Made by a program: the position numbers and the translations under genes. This document shows positions 1 to 8,156 of a stretch of DNA of 8,156 nucleotides, piece after piece. The stretch is taken from contig JBHGNT010001458.1 of NCBI GenBank assembly GCA_043228905.1, positions 1 through 8,156 on the forward strand. Reading direction: 5' to 3'. The stretch is from Azolla caroliniana (lineage: Eukaryota > Plantae > Polypodiophyta). The first letter of the stretch is position 1. Every line of letters begins with the position of its first letter. The notes beneath the pieces are model-generated. The model was not told the DNA's origin and searched no databases. It saw only the letters and a list, made by a program, of their open reading frames with translations.

Positions 1-490
1 TAACGGTGTTTGTGGAAGAGACCCGCGCTAGTGTTTGTGGAAAGCTGATGCAGCAGTTGCACTAATCCACCATCGGATTGTGTGTTTCCAAACAAGAGAG
101 CCCTAAAACAATCGGATGTTGAGGAGTTGCAATGAGATAGAATGTTAATACCTCATGGTGGAGCCCAAATTGAAGTACCAATGGGATAGTGGCTTCAGTA
201 ACTACCCCTGAAGAGAGGACCCGTCCGTCGATAGCTTCAACAGATATGGGATGCGTTGTGTGGACAGTGGGGATTTTATGTGCTCAGACGAACGCAATAT
301 TGATGAAACAAGTGGATGCACTAGAATCGAGCAAGGCATGGGATTTTATTGAAATATACCCAAAACTAAGACTTACTTGCAACGTAAAACCTCTTGCTCG
401 TGTGACTGAATTGTAGGAGCACAGAGAAGTAGGGTGACGGGATGTGTCCAACGACATGGCTCCTACTGCAGCCAGACTTGCTTGTTTTCC
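1..490 (-). pseudogene. pol: pol N-terminus of element A: retropepsin-like aspartic protease, disrupted
   Basis: The -1 frame from GGAAAAC (490-484) reads GKQASLAAVGAMSLD...IKSHALLDSSASTCFINIAFV*AHKIP...VEAIDGRVLSSGVVTEATIPLVL...HPIVLGLSCLETHNPMVD*. The catalytic LDSGA motif is mutated to LDSSA (Asp codon 328-326). There are two in-frame stops. Confidence 0.9.
428..490 (-). promoter_or_regulatory. Putative -1 ribosomal frameshift signal (G_GAA_AAC plus H-type pseudoknot), element A
   Basis: Heptamer 490-484 in the gag frame; 6-nt spacer; stem 1 GTCTGGC (477-471)/GTTGGAC (452-446) with three G-U pairs; stem 2 AGTAGG (467-462)/CCTACT (433-428). The -1 frame is open into the protease motif. Confidence 0.7.
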
Positions 491-1543
491 TGTTGTCCAA
501 AAACCTTCGCAAGACGTGCACGATCGTTTTCTTGTTGTCGAGAAACCTCGACAAGATGTGCACGGTGGGATTCATGACGAGGGCTGCGCATCGGGCAGTG
601 GTGGATGACATGGTGGGGGGCACCACAATAGAGGTAGAGGCCATTGTCACATCAATGTTGCCGTTGGTCATCGGTTAATGGTTGGAACCGAGCATGGTCG
701 TCTCCATTGGGGTACAAGAGTTGACCTCCATCGGGGTAAGAGTATCATTGGAAGACGGCAACCGTGGCGTGCTTGGTGAAACTGATATATATGGCCTTGT
801 GAGTGGAGCATTGCGGAAGGAAGAAGGAAAGCCACGAGTCCCCCGTTCCTCTTGTCGAAGCTCAAAAAGACGATTATCACATTGAACGGCTTGGGAGATT
901 ACCTGGGACAATGATGTGGGCTCCGGAAAGTTTAAGAGAAGAGTCTTGACATCATTTTTGAGTCCTCGACGAAACTGGTCGCATAAAGCTTGGTCATCCT
1001 ACCTGACATCGCACGCGATCTGACGAAACTTTGAAGCATAGACGGAAGCTGGACGAGATCCTTGTTGTAAGGAATAAAGTTTCATGAGAGCCGTTCATTG
1101 CCGATGTGTCTCTCCGAATGTGGCTTCAAGCTCCGCAAGGAAGGCAGGAAAGTTCTCTAAGAGTGGGGATGATGTTTCCATCAATGGTGCAAACCACGCT
1201 TGTGCCGGCCCTGAGAGAAGGGTGCCAACGAGGCTGACCCGAGAGAAATCACTAGCATAACATTGGGGTTGTAAGCGGATGATAAGCCGAATTTGATTGA
1301 TAAAGCCACGAAGATGTGCCCTTGAGCGTTGAATTTGTCAGGTAGGTGGACATTAGGTTCGAGGACATATGAAAGGGAAGAGGAAGGGGTTGGGTTAGGT
1401 GCTAACGGAAGGTGAGGCTCAATGGGTGGAGGATTGTTGGTTGTGCTATTTTGAAGCTCTTGTAATGATTGACGAAGGATTTCATTTTCTAATTGAAGTT
1501 GTTCCAAGGCTGCCATTACTTGGCTTAAGGCTTAGTCGGACAT
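463..1543 (-). pseudogene. gag: gag of element A (capsid plus CCHC zinc knuckle), disrupted
   Basis: Reconstructed translation: MSD*ALSQVMAALEQLQLENEILRQ...LPDKFN/SRAHLRGFINQIRLIIRLQPQCYASDFSRVSLVGTLLSGPAQAWFAPLME...LQQGSRPASVYASKFRQIA...QFRRGLKNDVK...QAVQCDNRLFE...TPME/DHARFQPLTDDQRQH*CDNGLYLYCGAPHHVIHHCP...QENKQVWLQ*. Apparent 1-nt deletions near 1327 and 701. Knuckle at 636-595 has its first Cys changed to Tyr. Confidence 0.92.
481..564 (-). repeat. Imperfect in-frame 42-bp tandem duplication at the gag 3' end
   Basis: Copies at 564-523 and 522-481 encode RAHLVEVSRQQEND and RARLAKVFGQQENK. Confidence 0.85.
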
Positions 1544-1557
1544 GGTAACAAGAAGAG

Positions 1558-1570
1558 AAGGTGAATAAAC
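1558..1570 (-). promoter_or_regulatory. Self-priming type primer-binding site of element A
   Basis: GTTTATTCACCTT follows the LTR end directly, with no TGG tRNA PBS. TTATTCACCTT is complementary at 10 of 11 positions to AAGGTGAACAA (1748-1738, minus), which begins 32 nt after the first base of the TATA box. Confidence 0.7.
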
Positions 1571-1772
1571 TGTCACGGACCAGTAGACAAGGACAAGGAC
1601 AAGTAGGCGAGCTAAATATTAAGACAGAGCGAAAGATAGATATATAGATAGGGAGAGAGTATAGACAAGAGAACAAGAGAGATAGAGGGAGAAGGTAGAC
1701 AAAGAGCAAGAACTAGATTATGCTTTCGTAATTGGTGTTGTTCACCTTGATTGTAATCAAGGTGCACTGAAG

Positions 1773-1780
1773 TATTTATA
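1773..1780 (-). promoter_or_regulatory. TATA box of LTR A
   Basis: TATAAATA on the minus strand, mid-LTR, at a normal distance from the inferred transcription start (~1748). Confidence 0.7.
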
Positions 1781-1810: not shown

Positions 1811-1886
1811 GAAACATCTACAGAATTCATGGAAACTTCTAGAGAGTGCATGAAGGTGCATTCTCTAGAAATTTCTTGAAAGTTCT
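1811..1886. promoter_or_regulatory. Heat-shock element cluster in U3 of LTR A
   Basis: aGAAatTTCttGAAagTTCt (1867-1886) is four perfect alternating nGAAn units. Also GAAacTTCtaGAG (1832-1844) and a degenerate run at 1811-1828. Confidence 0.65.
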
Positions 1887-1942
1887 AGTGATTAACTTAC
1901 AATGTAATAATTTGAAACTTATACAATATAATAATGCATAGA

Positions 1943-2013
1943 TTGAATGTAGCTCAATTGCTAAGGTTGCCCAATAAGACCAAGAGGTCATGGGTTCAAC
2001 CCCGTACATTCCA
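1943..2013 (+). other. tRNA-like Pol III type-2 promoter module inside LTR A, antisense to the element
   Basis: A box TAGCTCAATTGC (1950-1961); variable-loop-like AGGTC; B box GGTTCAACCCC (1993-2003); acceptor-like stem TTGAATG/CATTCCA (6/7 paired). The anticodon arm is not canonical. Confidence 0.65.
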
Positions 2014-2027
2014 TCGTGTCTATGACA

Positions 2028-3013
2028 CATTGAGGGAAAGATGACTATGGATGAGTCGATGGTGACCGATGGTGTCGAGGTTCTCCTGACAATTGTTCGT
2101 GAGACCAGAGAGACGGAAGGTGACGACAAGAAATCAAAGGACCGAAACGGCGATGAGGACGATGAACACAGACTAAGGGATCCCTCCACACCGGTTCCGG
2201 AGACTTCAACAATTGTGCACGAGAGCCAACATAAGACCAGAGAGATGGAAGGTGGCAGTGAAGAGATGAGGGTCAAAGCCATCGCATACGGAGGAACGGT
2301 GGCCAACAAGGAGGTCAAGAATAAAGCTTCAATAGAGTTTGATGATGAGCCAAGGAGCGGCAAGAAAGGAAGAACCGGAAGACAATCTGGATAGAAGATG
2401 TCGTGGTTGGTATTCCGACCTGGATGGGAGCTGATCAACCGAGCCCGACCCAACCGAAATGTGGATGGACGCCAACCCGGAGGGAAGCCAATCGTCTCCA
2501 ATTCATCTGAATGCGAATCCGGAAGAAGACCGACCAAGCCCGAAGCTGATTGGTCGAGACCAGTCTAGACACAAGTTGAGTCGGCGAAGCCGGAGGTCGA
2601 AGTAGAGGAGCTGTGACACCCAGTCGAGGCTGCTAAGCATGAGGAAACACAAGCATGAGATGAGAAAGGACGATCAGAGGAAGTTTGATGACCAAGGAGA
2701 TGGTTGGGATGAAGGTGACACATGTAGGGTTACGCTTAGGTGGAGAAAAAGGGCTATGCCAAATGGTCATGGCAATGCGAAGGGCGAGCGAATGATATAG
2801 TTGATCGGGTGGTGACAATGGTTTGGGTGGAAGGAATGCATGTGCTCAAAATGGAGGACAAAGGTTGTCGCAGGCGAAGCGTAAGAAAGAAAGAAATCAA
2901 AGGCCAACCATCTTTGAGTCCACCACATCACTCTTTTCTTCTTGGCACATGCTGGAGGATGTGCGGTTTGGTGGGGGTGGACATCATGATGTTGCGCATC
3001 CAATGGGAGAAAT
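2028..3013 (+). other. Purine-rich spacer with a decayed low-complexity reading frame; possibly the 3' internal region of an older LTR retrotransposon into which A and B inserted
   Basis: The frame of ORF 2041-2394 (E/D/K/R-rich) continues through isolated stops to ~2680. Near the end, GGTGGGGGTGGA (2970-2981) is followed by TGATG (2987), resembling a PPT and LTR start. No domain recognised. Confidence 0.3.
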
Positions 3014-3091
3014 TGTGAAATACTATAGTTCCATGCATATTACACAAACAATTATAAATATGAAAATTAACCTAGGGCCTAGTGGCATTTG

Positions 3092-3163
3092 AGTGCAAGC
3101 AAGATTTGAACCTTGCACCTCCAAGATAGGAGACATTTATCTTACCATTAGGGCTACTACCAA
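3092..3163 (-). other. tRNA-like Pol III type-2 promoter module inside LTR B, antisense to the element
   Basis: Minus strand: A box TAGCCCTAATGG (3156-3145); hairpin AAGATA-9nt-TATCTT; AGGTG; B box GGTTCAAATC (3112-3103) within stem GCAAG/CTTGC; TTTT downstream at 3066-3063. Acceptor stem is weak. Confidence 0.6.
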
Positions 3164-3237
3164 GTACTTTAAATGTTTTCTATTTCTTTTCATATTCAAA
3201 AGGCATAGGAAAACAACCGTACAAACCCGTGTGCCCA

Positions 3238-3265
3238 AAAACCATGGGTCCAAGCCCATGGTTTT
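3238..3265. repeat. Perfect 11-bp inverted repeat in U3 of LTR B
   Basis: AAAACCATGGG-TCCAAG-CCCATGGTTTT. Confidence 0.9.
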
Positions 3266-3291
3266 GTGCATGTTAGAAGCATGGATAGACC

Positions 3292-3298
3292 TATAAAA
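3292..3298 (+). promoter_or_regulatory. TATA box of LTR B
   Basis: cTATAAAA in the LTR, followed ~27 nt later by AAGGGGGGG. Confidence 0.65.
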
Positions 3299-3340
3299 AC
3301 CCTCGTAAGGCTTGTGTAAAGGGGGGGCTCAATATGTGAT

Positions 3341-3408
3341 ATTATCATCATCATTATCACCATCAATATAATAATCTTCTTCTTATTATTCTTGTTTATC
3401 TTCTTCTC
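3341..3408 (+). repeat. Degenerate (ATC/ATT/TTC)n low-complexity tract in R/U5 of LTR B
   Basis: attatcatcatcattatcaccatc...tcttcttcttattattcttgtttatcttcttctc. Confidence 0.7.
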
Positions 3409-3511
3409 GAGTGTAAAATTTTCCGATCTTCTCAAGTGTAGTGCTCATTGTTTCCCCAAATCTTACATTCACATCGTCCTCTTCTCAATAACTCCCTGGT
3501 ACAAGACCCCA

Positions 3512-4435
3512 ATGGTCCCGTTCAAGCGAAGCACGCACGTATGCACATCTTCGCGACAACGCGCTCACAATTCAGAGGATTATTTAATCAGGTACACTTA
3601 GTCATTCAAATGCATCCTTCCCGATACCCCATTGATGCATCCCGAGTAGGCCTACTAGGCACGTTGCTTAGCGGCTCAGCCTTGGCATGGTTCGCTCCGC
3701 TTTTGGAAAAACAATCTCCCTTGCTTAATAACTTTGAAGACTTTATTAGTGAGTTTAAAGCCAACTTTGGAGATACCGACAACATCAGGACGTCGATCAA
3801 CAAAATCTGACGATTGCGTCAAGGCGATCGTCTAGGCTCTGCCTACGCGGCGGATTTCCGTCTACTCGCCTCAGATATCCCCTGGGATGACGAAATACTA
3901 ATGGAGCAATTCCGCTATGGCCTATGAAACGATATCAAAGATTTACTTTTTAACCTTTCCTGAAGAACCAAAATCTCTTCCAGAGGCAATCACTCAAGCG
4001 GTCCGATGCGACAACCACCTTTTGGAGCGACGTTCGAAACGTCAATTTCAATTGCCATGGACTAGGCCAGAGCCCACATAAGCCTCAGTCGCAGCTAAAC
4101 CGGTTGCACGAGATGTATCTCAAGCGAATACTCCGACGCCGATGGAGATCGACATCATGCATCCACGTGGCCCGTTATCGGAAGAAGAAAAACAACGACA
4201 ACGTGCAAATTGATTGTGTCTTTATTGCGGTGGACCAGGAGGGCATATCACCATCAAATGTCCCCATAGGCCAAGAAGACAGGTAAATCAAATCGTAACT
4301 TGTACTAAACCCGAGTCAACTCCCTTAGGAGTGTCTGATAGTATCAATAGTATTGATAGCCCAAGTATCTCAAACAAATTCGAAATCCTTAGTCAATTAG
4401 AGGAAGAGTTAAACAACTAAGTCCAGCCAAAATAG
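3512..4435 (+). pseudogene. gag: gag of element B, disrupted; N-terminal part apparently deleted
   Basis: TRSQFRGLFNQVHLVIQMHPSRYP...FGDTDNIRTSINKI*RLRQGDRLGSAYAADFRLLASDIPWDDEILMEQFRYGL*NDIKDLL/FPEEPKSLPEAITQAVRCDNHL...PTPMEID...GPLSEEEKQRQRAN*LCLYCGGPGGHITIKCP. Stops include 3808, 3925 and 4211; extra T in the run at 3947-3951; knuckle 4217-4261. The start position is uncertain. Confidence 0.9.
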
Positions 4436-4459
4436 GAGCCATTTAGTTGGACAATCCTA
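4408..4459 (+). promoter_or_regulatory. Putative -1 ribosomal frameshift signal (G_TTA_AAC plus H-type pseudoknot), element B
   Basis: Heptamer 4408-4414 in the gag frame; 6-nt spacer; stem 1 GTCCAGC (4421-4427)/GTTGGAC (4446-4452); stem 2 TAGGA (4433-4437)/TCCTA (4455-4459). The -1 frame is the protease frame. Confidence 0.72.
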
Positions 4460-4706
4460 GATCTACGCAACCCATTAGTGGTTCCATTCCCTATAAGCAA
4501 GTTAACAATGTGTTCTTAGCCCAAGCTATGATTAGTACTAAAAGCACCCTTCCAGTACATGTCTTAGCACTTTTAGATTCCGGAGCCAATTCCTGTTTCA
4601 TGGATCGGAAATTTGCCCAAGCTTCTTAGATATCCTTAAGAAAACTTCCTTGCCCCACATCTGTAGTAGTCATTGATGGTCGTCCCATTGCTTCTGGGAA
4701 TATCGT
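4408..4706 (+). pseudogene. pol: pol N-terminus of element B: aspartic protease, truncated
   Basis: VHVLALLDSGANSCFMDRKFAQAS*ISLRKLPCPTSVVVIDGRPIASGNIV, catalytic Asp at 4576-4578. TAG stops at 4444 and 4627. Recognisable homology ends at ~4706. Confidence 0.9.
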
Positions 4707-4734
4707 ATTACTAAGCCACAACCGAGTAATATTA

Positions 4735-6090
4735 CTCAGCTGGATGTGCTTCGTCTTGGTATGATACGCCGCGTTCTTCGCAAGGTGGATGGCACTTTGA
4801 TTGTCGCAATAGAGCCGATATTCCTCTTGCCAGATCCCTAGCTCTTCGATGAAGTCCTTCATCCATAGTATTTCCTTGTCGGCTTCCACAACCTCCATGT
4901 ACTCCGCCTCCGTGGTTGACAATGCAATAGTCTTCTGCAACCTCGATTGCCACGAAACAGCTCCCCCTGCATATGTCATAACATATCCCCATGTTGACCG
5001 GCCGGTATCTGCATCATCCGACATATCCGAATTGGGGAAACCGTCAAGTTGGGGTATACCAGAGCCGAATCGGAGACACATAGTTGAGGTGCCTTTCAAG
5101 TACCGGAGTATCCATTTTACCACATTCCAGTCCTCCTTACCGAGATTGCTCATGAACCGGCTCACCACTCGGACTGCGTATCCGATGTCCGGTCGGGTAC
5201 ACACCATTGCGTAAATTAAGCTCCCGACGGTAGAGGCATATGGTATCTTCATCATATCCACCTTCTTTGCCTTCGTCTTCGGGCTTTGCTTACCAGATAA
5301 CCTGTAGTTTGCCGGGAGTGTCGATCCAACTGGCTTCTCATCTGACATGTTGAACCGCTGAAGCACCTTTGTCACGTATTTCTCCTATGACAGCCACAAT
5401 TGCTTCTCTGACCGGTCCCGGATGATATGCATCCCTAGTATATGTCTTGCCGGACCCAAGTCTTTCATTGAGAAGGTCTGGTTCAGAGCCTTCTTCAGCA
5501 TCCGTATCTTGACTTGGTCTTGTCCGACGATCAACATGTCGTCCACGTATAGGAGGAGTATCAGGAAGTCTCCTCCTTCAAACTTCTTCACAAATATGCA
5601 GTGATCGGCCTGTGTCTTGTGGTACCCTTGATCGGTCATGAAGGAGTCGAACTTCCGGTACCATTGCCGGGGACCCTGTTTCAAACCGTAGAGGCTCTTC
5701 TTCAATCGGCAAACCAGGTGCTCCTTCCCTTTCTTCACAAATCCCTTTGGTTGCTGCATGTAGATCTCCTCTTGGAGGTTGCCATGGAGGAACGACGTCT
5801 TCACGTCTAACTGCTCTACCTCGAGGTGCATGCTTGCTGCTATGCTCAACACCGTTCGGATGGAAGTCATCTTTACTACCGGGGCAAATACCTCGTCGAA
5901 GTCAACGCCCTTCTTCTACTGGAACCCCTTCACCATAATCCTAGCTTTGTATCTCGAGGGGTTTCCGACATCTCCCAGTTTCAGCTTGTACACCCACTTA
6001 TTCCGGAGTGCCCGCTTTCCTTTTGGCAACTCCACCAGTTCATATGTGTGGTACTCATGTAGGGAATCCATCTTGTCTTGCATGGTAATT
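4735..6090 (-). pseudogene. pol: Copia reverse transcriptase and RNase H
   Basis: RT: ELVELPKGKRALRNKWVYKLK, RYKARIMVKGF, QLDVKTSFLHGNLQEEIYMQQPKGF, LKKSLYGLKQGPRQWY, LLLYVDDML (YVDD 5549-5538), CTRPDI. RNase H: RSTWGY, STTEAEY, YCDNQSAIHLAKN, YHTKTKHIQL. Boundaries approximate. Confidence 0.95.
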
Positions 6091-6469
6091 AACCACTTGC
6101 GGCTATGGGTGTCCTCCTTTGCTTCCTCGAAGCTTTCCGGCTCCCCCTCATCGGTTAGCAACACACGCTCTGCATTCGGAAATCTCCGGGGGGGCCTTCT
6201 CTCTCTGAGAGGATATCTTCGTCTTTGGCTTTCGGCGATTGGCTCCTCCATTTGTTCTTCATCCAAATCTGATTCAAGGTCTTGGCCGGTTCCGGTTTTA
6301 GCTTCCTCTTCTTCTTCTTCTGCCGGTTCGGTATCCTCACCATTACCGGCCGGTTCTTCGAGTGTCAACTGGCTCTTAGCCAGGTAGGTCCGAATCTCAT
6401 CGAACCGATCCTTACCGGTCGACTTGGGGTTCATTATCTTCTTCTCCAACTCCTAGTCAGCAAGGGTCT

Positions 6470-7320
6470 TGTCCTCCATGACGATAATATCTCGACTCCG
6501 GAAAATCTTCTTGTCGACCGGATCCCACACTCGGTAGCCGAACTCATCATCGCCGTATCCGAGGAATATGCAAGGCCGGAACTTTGGATCCAGCTTTCCA
6601 CTCCTGTCCTTTGCAACATGCACGTCAGCGAGGCACCCGAAAACCTTCAGATGCCGGTAAGACACTTCCTTATTGGTCCACACTCTCTACGGCGTGTCTC
6701 CGTCCAAGGGCATTGAGGGTGATCTATTTATCACGTACGTCGTTGTTGCCAGCGCCTCAGCCCAAAACGTCTTGGGTAGCTTTGCATGTGCTAGCATACT
6801 CCAGACCCTCTCCATTATAGTCCAGTTCATCCTCTCGGCTAGCCCATTGAGTTCCGGTGACTTCGGCACGGTAAATTCGAGCCAGATTCCCTTCGAGCGG
6901 TAGTACTCTTCGAACTACCCCGGTATTCTCCTCCGTTATTTGCTCGAACCGCCTTCAGGTTCTAGCCGGTTTCTCTTTCCACTCTTGCGTGGAGCTCCTT
7001 GAAGACGGATAAAACCTGATCCTTCATCTTCAACGGTGTGGCCCACAGCTTCCGGCTGTGGTTGTCTATGAACGTCACAAAGTACTACGATCCGGCATGT
7101 GACTTCGTGTCCACTTGACACACATCGGTATGCACCAGCTCTAGTGGTGCATTATGTCTCATCGGTGACCTTGATCAAAAGGAGATCCGGTTTTGCTTAC
7201 CGGCCAGGCAGTCGGTGCATTTCTCAAGTTGCACGTTCTTTACCAGGATGAGGTTGTCTTCGGCAACCCTCTTCATCCCCTTCACCCTCATATGACATAG
7301 TGTCTTGTGCCACAGCTCAT
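6470..7320 (-). pseudogene. pol: Copia integrase (HHCC, DDE core, SH3-like C-terminus)
   Basis: LWHKTLCHM...CTDCLAGKQ, LELVHTDVC, FVTFIDNHSRK, AVRANNGGEY (second catalytic D changed to N), PELNGLAERMN, FWAEALATTTYVINRSP, KLDPKFRPCIFLGY. Confidence 0.93.
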
Positions 7321-7419
7321 CGGCAGTGTCGGATGCCACGTTCACTTCTTCCGGGCATAATCGAGCATTCATCAAGTACAACATGTTGACTTTCTAGGCC
7401 CACGTCACTATTAGACTCC

Positions 7420-8156
7420 CTTTGCTGAATTTCATGACACCATTCCGGATGCTACTCGTGTAGCCTTCATCATCTAGGCGACCGATTGATATCAGGTTCA
7501 GTTGAACCTCCGAAACATGTCGGATATCCTTCAACAACAGCTTACATCCGGTTGGTGTTGTCAACCACACGTCTCTTATGCTGACAATTCGGCATGTACC
7601 TTCATTCCACATCCGGACACAACCGTGCTCACCGGCTATGTAGGATGAGAAGCATTTCCGGTCCAGGGTGAGGTGGAACGATGCTCTGGAGTCAACTACC
7701 CACGTTGCCTTGTCGCTGGCAAGGTTCAACTCACTCTCCTCGGTGATGAACATCAACTCTTCTTCAATTGTCGTGATTGCCGTCGTTCTCTTCTGGTCCG
7801 GTCACCTCCGGTCCGGTGTCCACTTTGAATCGGTACTATTGGTTTCCTTATCTTTTCGGAAGTGCCAACAGTTCTTCTAGAAGTTTCCCGGCTTGCCGCA
7901 ATAGAAGCAAGCAGGCCTCCCCCTTGACTTTGACCGTGTCCCCGACTTTTCCCGGTTCTGGGGACTCCGGTTCCTTTGTCTTTCGCGTTGCGATTCGGTA
8001 AGGAGCGCTTTGGAGTCAGAGCTCGTATCCTTTTCTTTCCGATGTGCCTCCTCATCTAGCAAGCTCGACTTGACTCTTGCCAGGGATAACTATTTTCCTT
8101 CCGGCCCGGCGTTGCCCAAAGTGACAACTAACGTCTCCCAACTATCTGGAAGGGAA
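7420..8156 (-). pseudogene. Copia gag C-terminus with zinc knuckle, and protease
   Basis: LPDSWETLVVTLGNAG...VKSSLLDEEAHRK; CFYCGKPGNF*KNC (7909-7868, His changed to Asn); WVVDSRASFHLT (Asp 7693-7691); NLISIGRLDDEGY. Confidence 0.92.

Follow-up and report, generated by a model that had tools for sequence, protein, structure and literature searches.

An antisense, outward-facing tRNA-like module at the U3 edge of autonomous Tcn1-like chromoviruses, a candidate TFIIIC site

LTR U3 regions normally change too quickly to align. What, then, is to be made of a three-part U3 element that keeps its strand, place and spacing across retrotransposon clades whose Pol proteins are only 54% identical? The question is raised by a stretch of Azolla caroliniana DNA of 8,156 nucleotides, here called the window, in which two LTRs each carry a sequence resembling the internal promoter of a tRNA gene. 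The original prediction, drawn from the letters of the window, had paired these two LTRs as one lineage and had taken the module for a built-in part of them, perhaps an insulator or anti-silencing element or else a source of small RNAs.

The motifs of both modules lie where they had been predicted. Module A, at 1943..2013 on the forward strand, is antisense to its element and begins 14 nt within LTR A, as proposed. Its A box (T8-G19) occupies 1950..1961, its variable-loop motif AGGTC and B box (G53 at 1994) occupy 1985..2003, and upstream, still inside the LTR, an AT-rich TATA-like stretch (1900..1942, +) is a predicted TFIIIB site. At position 1961 the window has C, whereas nearly all other copies have G; this G19-to-C change is private to the window copy, with G at a depth of 103,029 of 103,636 among aligned contigs of run X1. 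Module B lies at 3092..3163 on the reverse strand, with T8 at 3156 and G53 at 3111. Both point out of their own LTR against the transcription of the element, and the tRNA-like distance from T8 to G53 was likewise borne out; it measures 44 nt for module A (1950 to 1994, +) and 45 nt for module B (3156 to 3111, -). Module B lies ~111 nt into its LTR and not the predicted ~78 nt, since LTR B spans 2982-3558.

Are these tRNA genes? Neither ARAGORN nor Rfam called either module a tRNA in the window, and a search of L068, one of the loci of the survey described below, gave no tRNA match. The best case is the module of another such locus, L001, which aligns to the whole Rfam tRNA model (RF00005) with a 7-bp acceptor stem and without the anticodon stem; at 27.8 bits (E 2.9e-4 in a 146-nt search) it stays below the gathering score of 29. 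Even there, a cloverleaf with an anticodon arm, by which ARAGORN or Rfam would recognise a tRNA gene, was not found. The short stem with a 9-nt loop that had been described for both modules is present in the two window copies and is not a fold common to the families.

Four elements are nested in the window: Gypsy A, element C, Gypsy B and Copia. Gypsy A runs on the reverse strand. Its 5' LTR (1571-2027, 457 bp, TGTCA...TGACA) is 94% identical over 450 nt to the 3' LTR of the intact L001, which is bounded by a polypurine tract (PPT), and contains the Pol II TATA (1773-1780) and R-start motif (together 1731..1780, -). A self-priming PBS follows at 1558..1570 (-), complementing the R start with one mismatch in the window copy, and then a broken gag (~1543-466, frameshifted) with the start of the protease (2..1543, -), which extends past the window edge. 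Gypsy A inserted into the internal region of element C, the 3' part of which (2028..2981, +) consists of a broken ORF and a polypurine tract at 2970-2981. LTR B, the 3' LTR of element C, comes next (2982..3558, +; 577 bp, ending in GCGACA, with a TATA at 3292). Element C in turn had inserted into Gypsy element B, a member of the L068 family represented by a 5'-truncated gag and the start of the protease (3559..4707, +). Outside the finding lies a broken Copia element (RVT_2, integrase; 4708..8156, -), which stops abruptly within RNase H at a short inverted repeat (4707-4735) adjoining the Gypsy B protease; a Copia LTR is absent at this junction.

The assignment of LTR B departs from the original prediction, which had given it to the adjacent gag B. 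This is ruled out by three observations. Gag B matches L068 (86.6%) only from 3558 onward and starts abruptly at 3559, without its first ~95 codons; a polypurine tract precedes LTR B; and the R-start motif shared by LTR A and most of its relatives is absent from it. The true family of gag B, L068, has a module of its own. Because LTR B belongs to a different element, the pairing of the two window LTRs as one lineage was wrong as well. The start at 2982 was preferred to 2943, 3014 and 3094, which were dropped on the evidence of the polypurine tract, the TG in most copies and loose ends: the purine tract ends at 2981, TG stands at 2982-2983 in nearly all aligned contigs, and many of these contigs diverge directly after 2981, the GCGACA end of the repeat lying at 3558. 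Contigs also span the join between element C and LTR B from 2931 to 3240.

What kind of element is C? A six-frame Pfam search of it gave no match. Its broken ORF resembles the C-terminal part of a gag-like protein and shares 35% identity with a portion of P0175; P0175 has no Pfam gag match, and its N-terminus scores 0.93 to Retrotrans_gag clusters in the Atlas, a lead from language-model features. Judged from these similarities, element C is probably a non-autonomous, gag-bearing LTR element of unplaced lineage. LTR B is the 3' LTR of a third, unrelated element, and therefore element C is a probable second lineage bearing the same module, unrelated to element A. Summed contig depth over the B box of module B reaches 182,868 in run X1, against 12,464 and 4,648 two bins to either side, and the peak recurs in three other runs from two other samples. 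Such a peak suggests a B-box region common to many repeat families, though summed depth does not measure copy number. The last 39 nt before LTR B (2943-2981) also have very high summed depth, with many differing upstream flanks, which suggests a terminal segment common to many element families. The viral contigs searched contained neither gag relatives nor the module-B pattern.

The identity of the carriers is clearer for element A. In L001 and L068 the domains RVT_1, RNase H, integrase and Chromo occur in that order, and L001 is intact: its gag is open and its pol frame (PR-RT-RH-INT-chromodomain) runs for 1246 aa. The carriers are thus autonomous gag-pol elements of ~5.4 kb with their own Pol II TATA. 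Their PBS complements the start of R over 11-12 nt in 34 of 38 junctions, counting those of at least 7 nt, and the paired sequences co-vary between families: these elements prime themselves. A self-priming PBS has been predicted for the Tcn1 clade, for which an aromatic-cage chromodomain is also given as a feature (PMC6317226, available text); the corresponding Y...W..Y can be seen by eye in the chromodomains inspected. By their sequences, element A and its relatives would be Tcn1-like chromoviruses, the likeness to the reference SM-Tcn1 being judged by eye. In SM-Tcn1 itself the sequence after the 5' LTR complements the start of R by eye, and it appears to self-prime, though no priming evidence was reported by its authors in the accessible part of PMC2864245. 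The R starts of several B-clade families (L052, L053, L054, L071) contain a B-box-like TTCGA(A/G)TC word in sense orientation. The idea that the U3 B box pairs with the start of R was dropped, as a by-eye fit exists in one B-clade family only.

How widespread is the module? Survey loci were taken from a gag alignment (the best 77 of 406 confirmed matches, on metagenome contigs), and LTR starts were set independently of the module by the PPT that follows the chromodomain. This gave 40 starts among the best 77 of 406 loci, 37 of which had at least 110 nt of LTR; with window LTR A they make 38 sequences in 17 families. Among these best 77 of 406 loci, 14 of 17 families have an exact B box (RGTTCRA) antisense within LTR nt 1-110; none of the 17 has one on the sense strand of the same stretch, and for nt 111-220 the antisense count is 1 of 15. 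By comparison, it is present in 312 of 6372 background windows (4.9%) and in 2.7% of shuffles. An A core together with the B box is found in 12 of 17 families from the same best 77 of 406 loci, compared with 51 of 6372 background windows, the A-core pattern having been selected after viewing the data. Because the families share ancestry, their counts are not independent and none of them is a probability.

The module occurs in both LTRs of an element: the B box is present on both sides in all six contigs with a flank-bounded 5' LTR and a PPT-bounded 3' LTR, these being metagenome contigs that may be collapsed. Both major clades have it, although their Pol proteins are 54% identical. Six B-clade modules served to train a two-block profile, which was then scanned along both strands (716,038 positions) and returned 36 matches of at least 20 bits, namely the six training modules, 28 further antisense matches at LTR edges (three of them 5' LTR copies absent from the start list) and the two window modules, A at 22.8 bits and B at 24.2 bits; a profile built from one clade thus recovers the other clade as well as both window modules. 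Outside LTR edges no match of at least 20 bits was found in the best 77 of 406 loci. A/B-like matches at the FHVSLLEP motif of integrase were discarded as coding artefacts.

The families share no SINE body or tail, and some modules stop at the LTR tip. Insertion beside a real host tRNA gene in the manner of Ty3 is rejected because the module lies inside the LTR and occurs in PPT-bounded 3' LTRs too. The outcome that would have overturned the original prediction, with the module missing from most members and its boxes no better conserved than their flanks, was not observed. The modules are real and the feature is lineage-wide; in this the original prediction of a conserved LTR part across an autonomous chromovirus lineage is upheld. 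The module is dispensable all the same, because three of the 17 families have no exact B box (L021, where it is degenerate, L040 and L057), L010 is reduced to the B box, and by-eye inspection of the U3 of the lycophyte SM-Tcn1 found none. L040, from which the module is absent, is the sister of the module-bearing L042, and L057, which also lacks it, sits on a long branch; in L021 and L032 the module is degenerate.

Which parts have been kept? The hand-picked sets used for box alignment, flanks, folding and hairpins (n=17, 13, 16 and 15) omit the module-less L040 and L057, both of which are in the tree together with the short L030. Alignment of the n=17 set on its B box shows conservation at AGGTC (tRNA 44-48), G52/G53-TTCRA, T60 and C61, the B-box columns being conserved partly by construction. 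AGGTC is as conserved as the B box, with A in 15, G in 15, G in 16, T in 16 and C in 11 of 17. In the A box T8, R9 and A14 are kept while positions 11-13 vary; the A-box score is at least 5 in 11 of 17 modules, against a mean of 0.8 and a maximum of 5 in 1000 shuffles. The distance from T8 to G53 is 44-46 nt in 12 of the 15 modules with an A box. In this way three motifs fit tRNA positions 8-19, 44-48 and 52-61 at tRNA spacing; the conserved letters are promoter positions and the region of the anticodon arm is variable.

The surrounding U3 has fared differently. Distant A-clade members share 0.73-0.79 identity with LTR A in the module and 0.57-0.61 in the rest of U3; in close relatives of A there is no difference (0.89-0.92 against 0.86-0.92). 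Only 14 of 105 family pairs have an alignable stretch in U3 nt 96-220. Boxes and spacing have thus persisted across the divergence of Pol while the intervening sequence turned over.

RNA-level features have not been kept in the same manner. The cloverleaf has been lost: fold z is below -2 in 2 of 16 modules, and the structures differ. Pairing in the canonical T-stem register shows no excess, 15% of permutations reaching it. When any of five registers is allowed, hairpins around the TTCRA loop are commoner than in permutations (1.3%; 38% in a cruder test), which hints at an RNA-level or single-strand role. No conserved T4 terminator was found in 32 LTR copies, where the position of the first downstream TTTT ranges from 9 nt within the LTR to >500 nt past its end, and some copies have none within 600 nt. 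With neither a conserved cloverleaf nor a conserved terminator, the module is therefore a promoter-like element and not an RNA gene, and the proposal of a small-RNA source is weakened. The sequence in front of the module, inside the LTR, has promoter-like features too. In 13 flanks, counted from the predicted +1, AT content is 0.75-0.80 at -40..-11 versus 0.53-0.68 further upstream, and a TATA-like word, by a loose pattern selected after viewing the data, falls in -40..-20 in 9 of 13 flanks versus 4, 1 and 0 of 13 in more distant windows. This position agrees with the TATA motif that plant tRNA genes have near -35 (PMC3082873, available text). By eye, the 13 flanks showed no clear conserved CAA motif at -7..-3. 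Between module and TATA, three-unit arrays of TTCnnGAA words, which we take to be heat-shock-element-like, occur in 8 of 17 families, for example at window positions 1822-1884 and in the U3 of L012, L018, L029, L052, L068 and L073.

What could such an element do? It may well be, though we hold this tentatively, that the antisense module at the U3 edge is a selected TFIIIC site serving as a boundary for the Pol II promoter of the LTR. TFIIIC would bind the A and B boxes in this place, and TFIIIB would sit on the AT-rich stretch just inside the LTR. The module would then act as a portable chromatin boundary between the host flank and the Pol II promoter. Its outward orientation would place the TATA-like flank needed by plant Pol III promoters within the sequence of the element and, at the same time, keep Pol III out of the Pol II promoter. 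Such a guard would benefit an element that, through its aromatic-cage chromodomain, is expected to insert in or near heterochromatin. As to its origin, a tRNA or the head of a tRNA-derived SINE would have been captured early in the lineage. TFIIIC-bound sites have been described as barriers and insulators in yeasts (PMC3159450, in the portion at hand). The boundary reading leaves the conserved AGGTC and the register-shifting hairpin unexplained. To our knowledge, the variable-loop motif is not a TFIIIC contact.

Might the module be an active Pol III promoter, with an outward transcript by which the element tunes its own silencing or copy number? Starting in the 3' LTR, such a transcript would cross the polypurine tract in antisense and enter the end of integrase; starting in the 5' LTR, it would enter the host flank. 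Full A and B boxes at tRNA spacing, the AT-rich stretch upstream and the strictly antisense orientation would all suit it, and Cassandra is described as being transcribed from an LTR Pol III promoter (PMC10886601, available sections). Yet the first TTTT varies so widely in position across the 32 LTR copies, or is absent, that there is no defined Pol III product, and no fold is conserved either, so that we consider this explanation unlikely. A different role would lie in the genomic RNA, where the sense U3 would complement the D, variable and T loops of a host tRNA and, helped by the CCHC nucleocapsid, anneal to it for dimerisation, packaging or strand transfer. HIV-1 reportedly has a tRNA-Lys3-like sequence in U3-R that promotes strand transfer. 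Sites that bind tRNA at the 3' end do exist in Ty3 and Drosophila Gypsy (PMC1635307, in its accessible text), and annealing explains the fixed antisense strand, the place next to the PPT and all three kept loop segments, AGGTC included. It fits poorly, however, with the 11-12 nt of complementarity between PBS and R, because elements that self-prime need no tRNA primer. The retention of T8, R9 and A14 alongside the variation at 11-13 is better matched by protein recognition than by pairing with one tRNA, and a similar outward module occurs in the inverted-repeat arms of L076, an element that may have no RNA stage. We find the annealing role rather improbable.

Could the module instead go back to an old SINE or tRNA insertion and have been passed on with the LTR as a neutral or near-neutral relic? 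Its loss or decay in some families, as in L040 beside its module-bearing sister L042, is what one would expect of a relic, as is the lack of any difference between module and other U3 in the close relatives of A; Leu-Glu-Pro codons moreover give chance B-box-like words in these elements. Over longer distances the evidence speaks against this account: the module stays ahead of the rest of U3 in distant A-clade members, and boxes and spacing outlast a U3 that is alignable in 14 of 105 pairs, which makes a relic quite improbable. That the boxes merely resemble those of a tRNA, and are in truth sites near the LTR end to which integrase or a Pol II transcription factor binds, is more improbable still, to the point that we give it little credence. 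In some families the B box does come as close as 10-16 nt to the LTR tip, and in L014-L016 it pairs with the terminal TGTCA in a hairpin, but the distance to the tip ranges from ~15 to 74 nt overall, three motifs stand at tRNA positions and tRNA spacing, and the L001 module fits the full Rfam tRNA model with its acceptor stem.

Has anything like this been described? The cis-element is real and lineage-wide and apparently undescribed, its closest known case being the non-autonomous Cassandra and Helenus. These belong with Ajax to TRIMp3, Cassandra being 5S-derived and Helenus tRNA-derived (Kojima 2024, PMC10886601, available text). As in TRIMp3 and Helenus, tRNA-like A and B boxes lie in the LTR and are kept, usually with no functional tRNA. 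In contrast, TRIMp3 elements are short (under 1.3 kb), non-coding and non-autonomous, which L001 with its gag and 1246-aa pol is not, and their Pol III promoter is proposed to make the template RNA, implying a sense orientation, whereas the module here is antisense (14 of 17 families, with 0 of 17 sense). The autonomous counterparts of TRIMp3, so the accessible text of Kojima 2024 (PMC10886601) argues, must use Pol II. An earlier sighting is possible, because the same paper (PMC10886601), in the text at hand, notes a resemblance to part of a tRNA in 'not a few LTRs' of Repbase, none of them described.

The Tcn1 chromoviruses of mosses and club-mosses resemble the carriers in gag, in the order PR-RT-RH-INT-chromodomain, in the self-priming PBS and in LTRs of ~300-470 bp (PMC2864245, PMC6317226, available parts), and the R-start motif is the same as in SM-Tcn1 (Novikova 2010, PMC2864245, available part). 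The accessible text of these papers on the clade (Novikova 2010, PMC2864245; Neumann 2019, PMC6317226) mentions no tRNA-like element in U3, and neither 'tRNA' nor 'SINE' occurs in the main text of PMC7466625 on expressed Physcomitrium transposons. In the openly accessible literature searched, we found no report of such a module in autonomous elements. By analogy, yeast tDNA and ETC (extra TFIIIC) barriers and SINE insulators would be functional relatives, having A/B boxes without a tRNA product and resembling the module in its proposed boundary role; those are host loci or SINEs, whereas the module has a fixed place in an LTR. The 3' sites of Ty3 and Drosophila Gypsy (PMC1635307, accessible text), like HIV-1 U3-R, are tRNA-complementary sequences near the 3' end of the genomic RNA. 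They match the primer tRNA of their own element, whereas here the elements self-prime and the module putatively fits tRNA-invariant positions and not one particular tRNA.

If the module is bound by TFIIIC, the transposon uses the machinery of host tRNA genes to protect its promoter, and plant TFIIIC barriers become directly testable through a small, naturally varied element that includes module-less families. High-copy LTRs with A/B boxes would, in addition, supply TFIIIC sites in large numbers and give rise to many false tRNA calls in these genomes. If the annealing explanation is true, a tRNA would have a role in an element that needs no tRNA primer. A broader idea, possible though doubtful, is that autonomous LTR retrotransposons of early land plants domesticated a tRNA-type Pol III promoter as an outward portable insulator and that at least two or three unrelated transposon types in the same genomes converged on this terminal design; TFIIIC recruitment would then be a general anti-silencing strategy and thousands of TFIIIC sites would have been seeded genome-wide.

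Related modules occur elsewhere. Between a truncated Gypsy and a Copia fragment, L076 contains at ~2239-3260 a long inverted-repeat element. Its arms reach 92% complementarity over 259 nt, and both carry an inward TATA together with an outward-facing relative of window module B. The occurrence of module B in an unrelated LTR and of a related module in L076 suggests that the module arose at least twice or has moved from one element to another. One subclade has a second antisense A/B-box-like module in the protease-RT linker, ~290-300 nt before RT (L052:2657-2712, L053:~3240, L061:~3537, L055:11403-11451, L071:2957-3005). This stretch is absent from L068 and L075, the pol frame stays open, and in L071 the linker module is called by ARAGORN at a relaxed threshold; either a second capture or a coding coincidence could account for it. 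A Gypsy element in L055 is immediately preceded by ~14 degenerate tandem units (L055:1-9330), which we take to resemble an intron-containing tRNA-Tyr gene.
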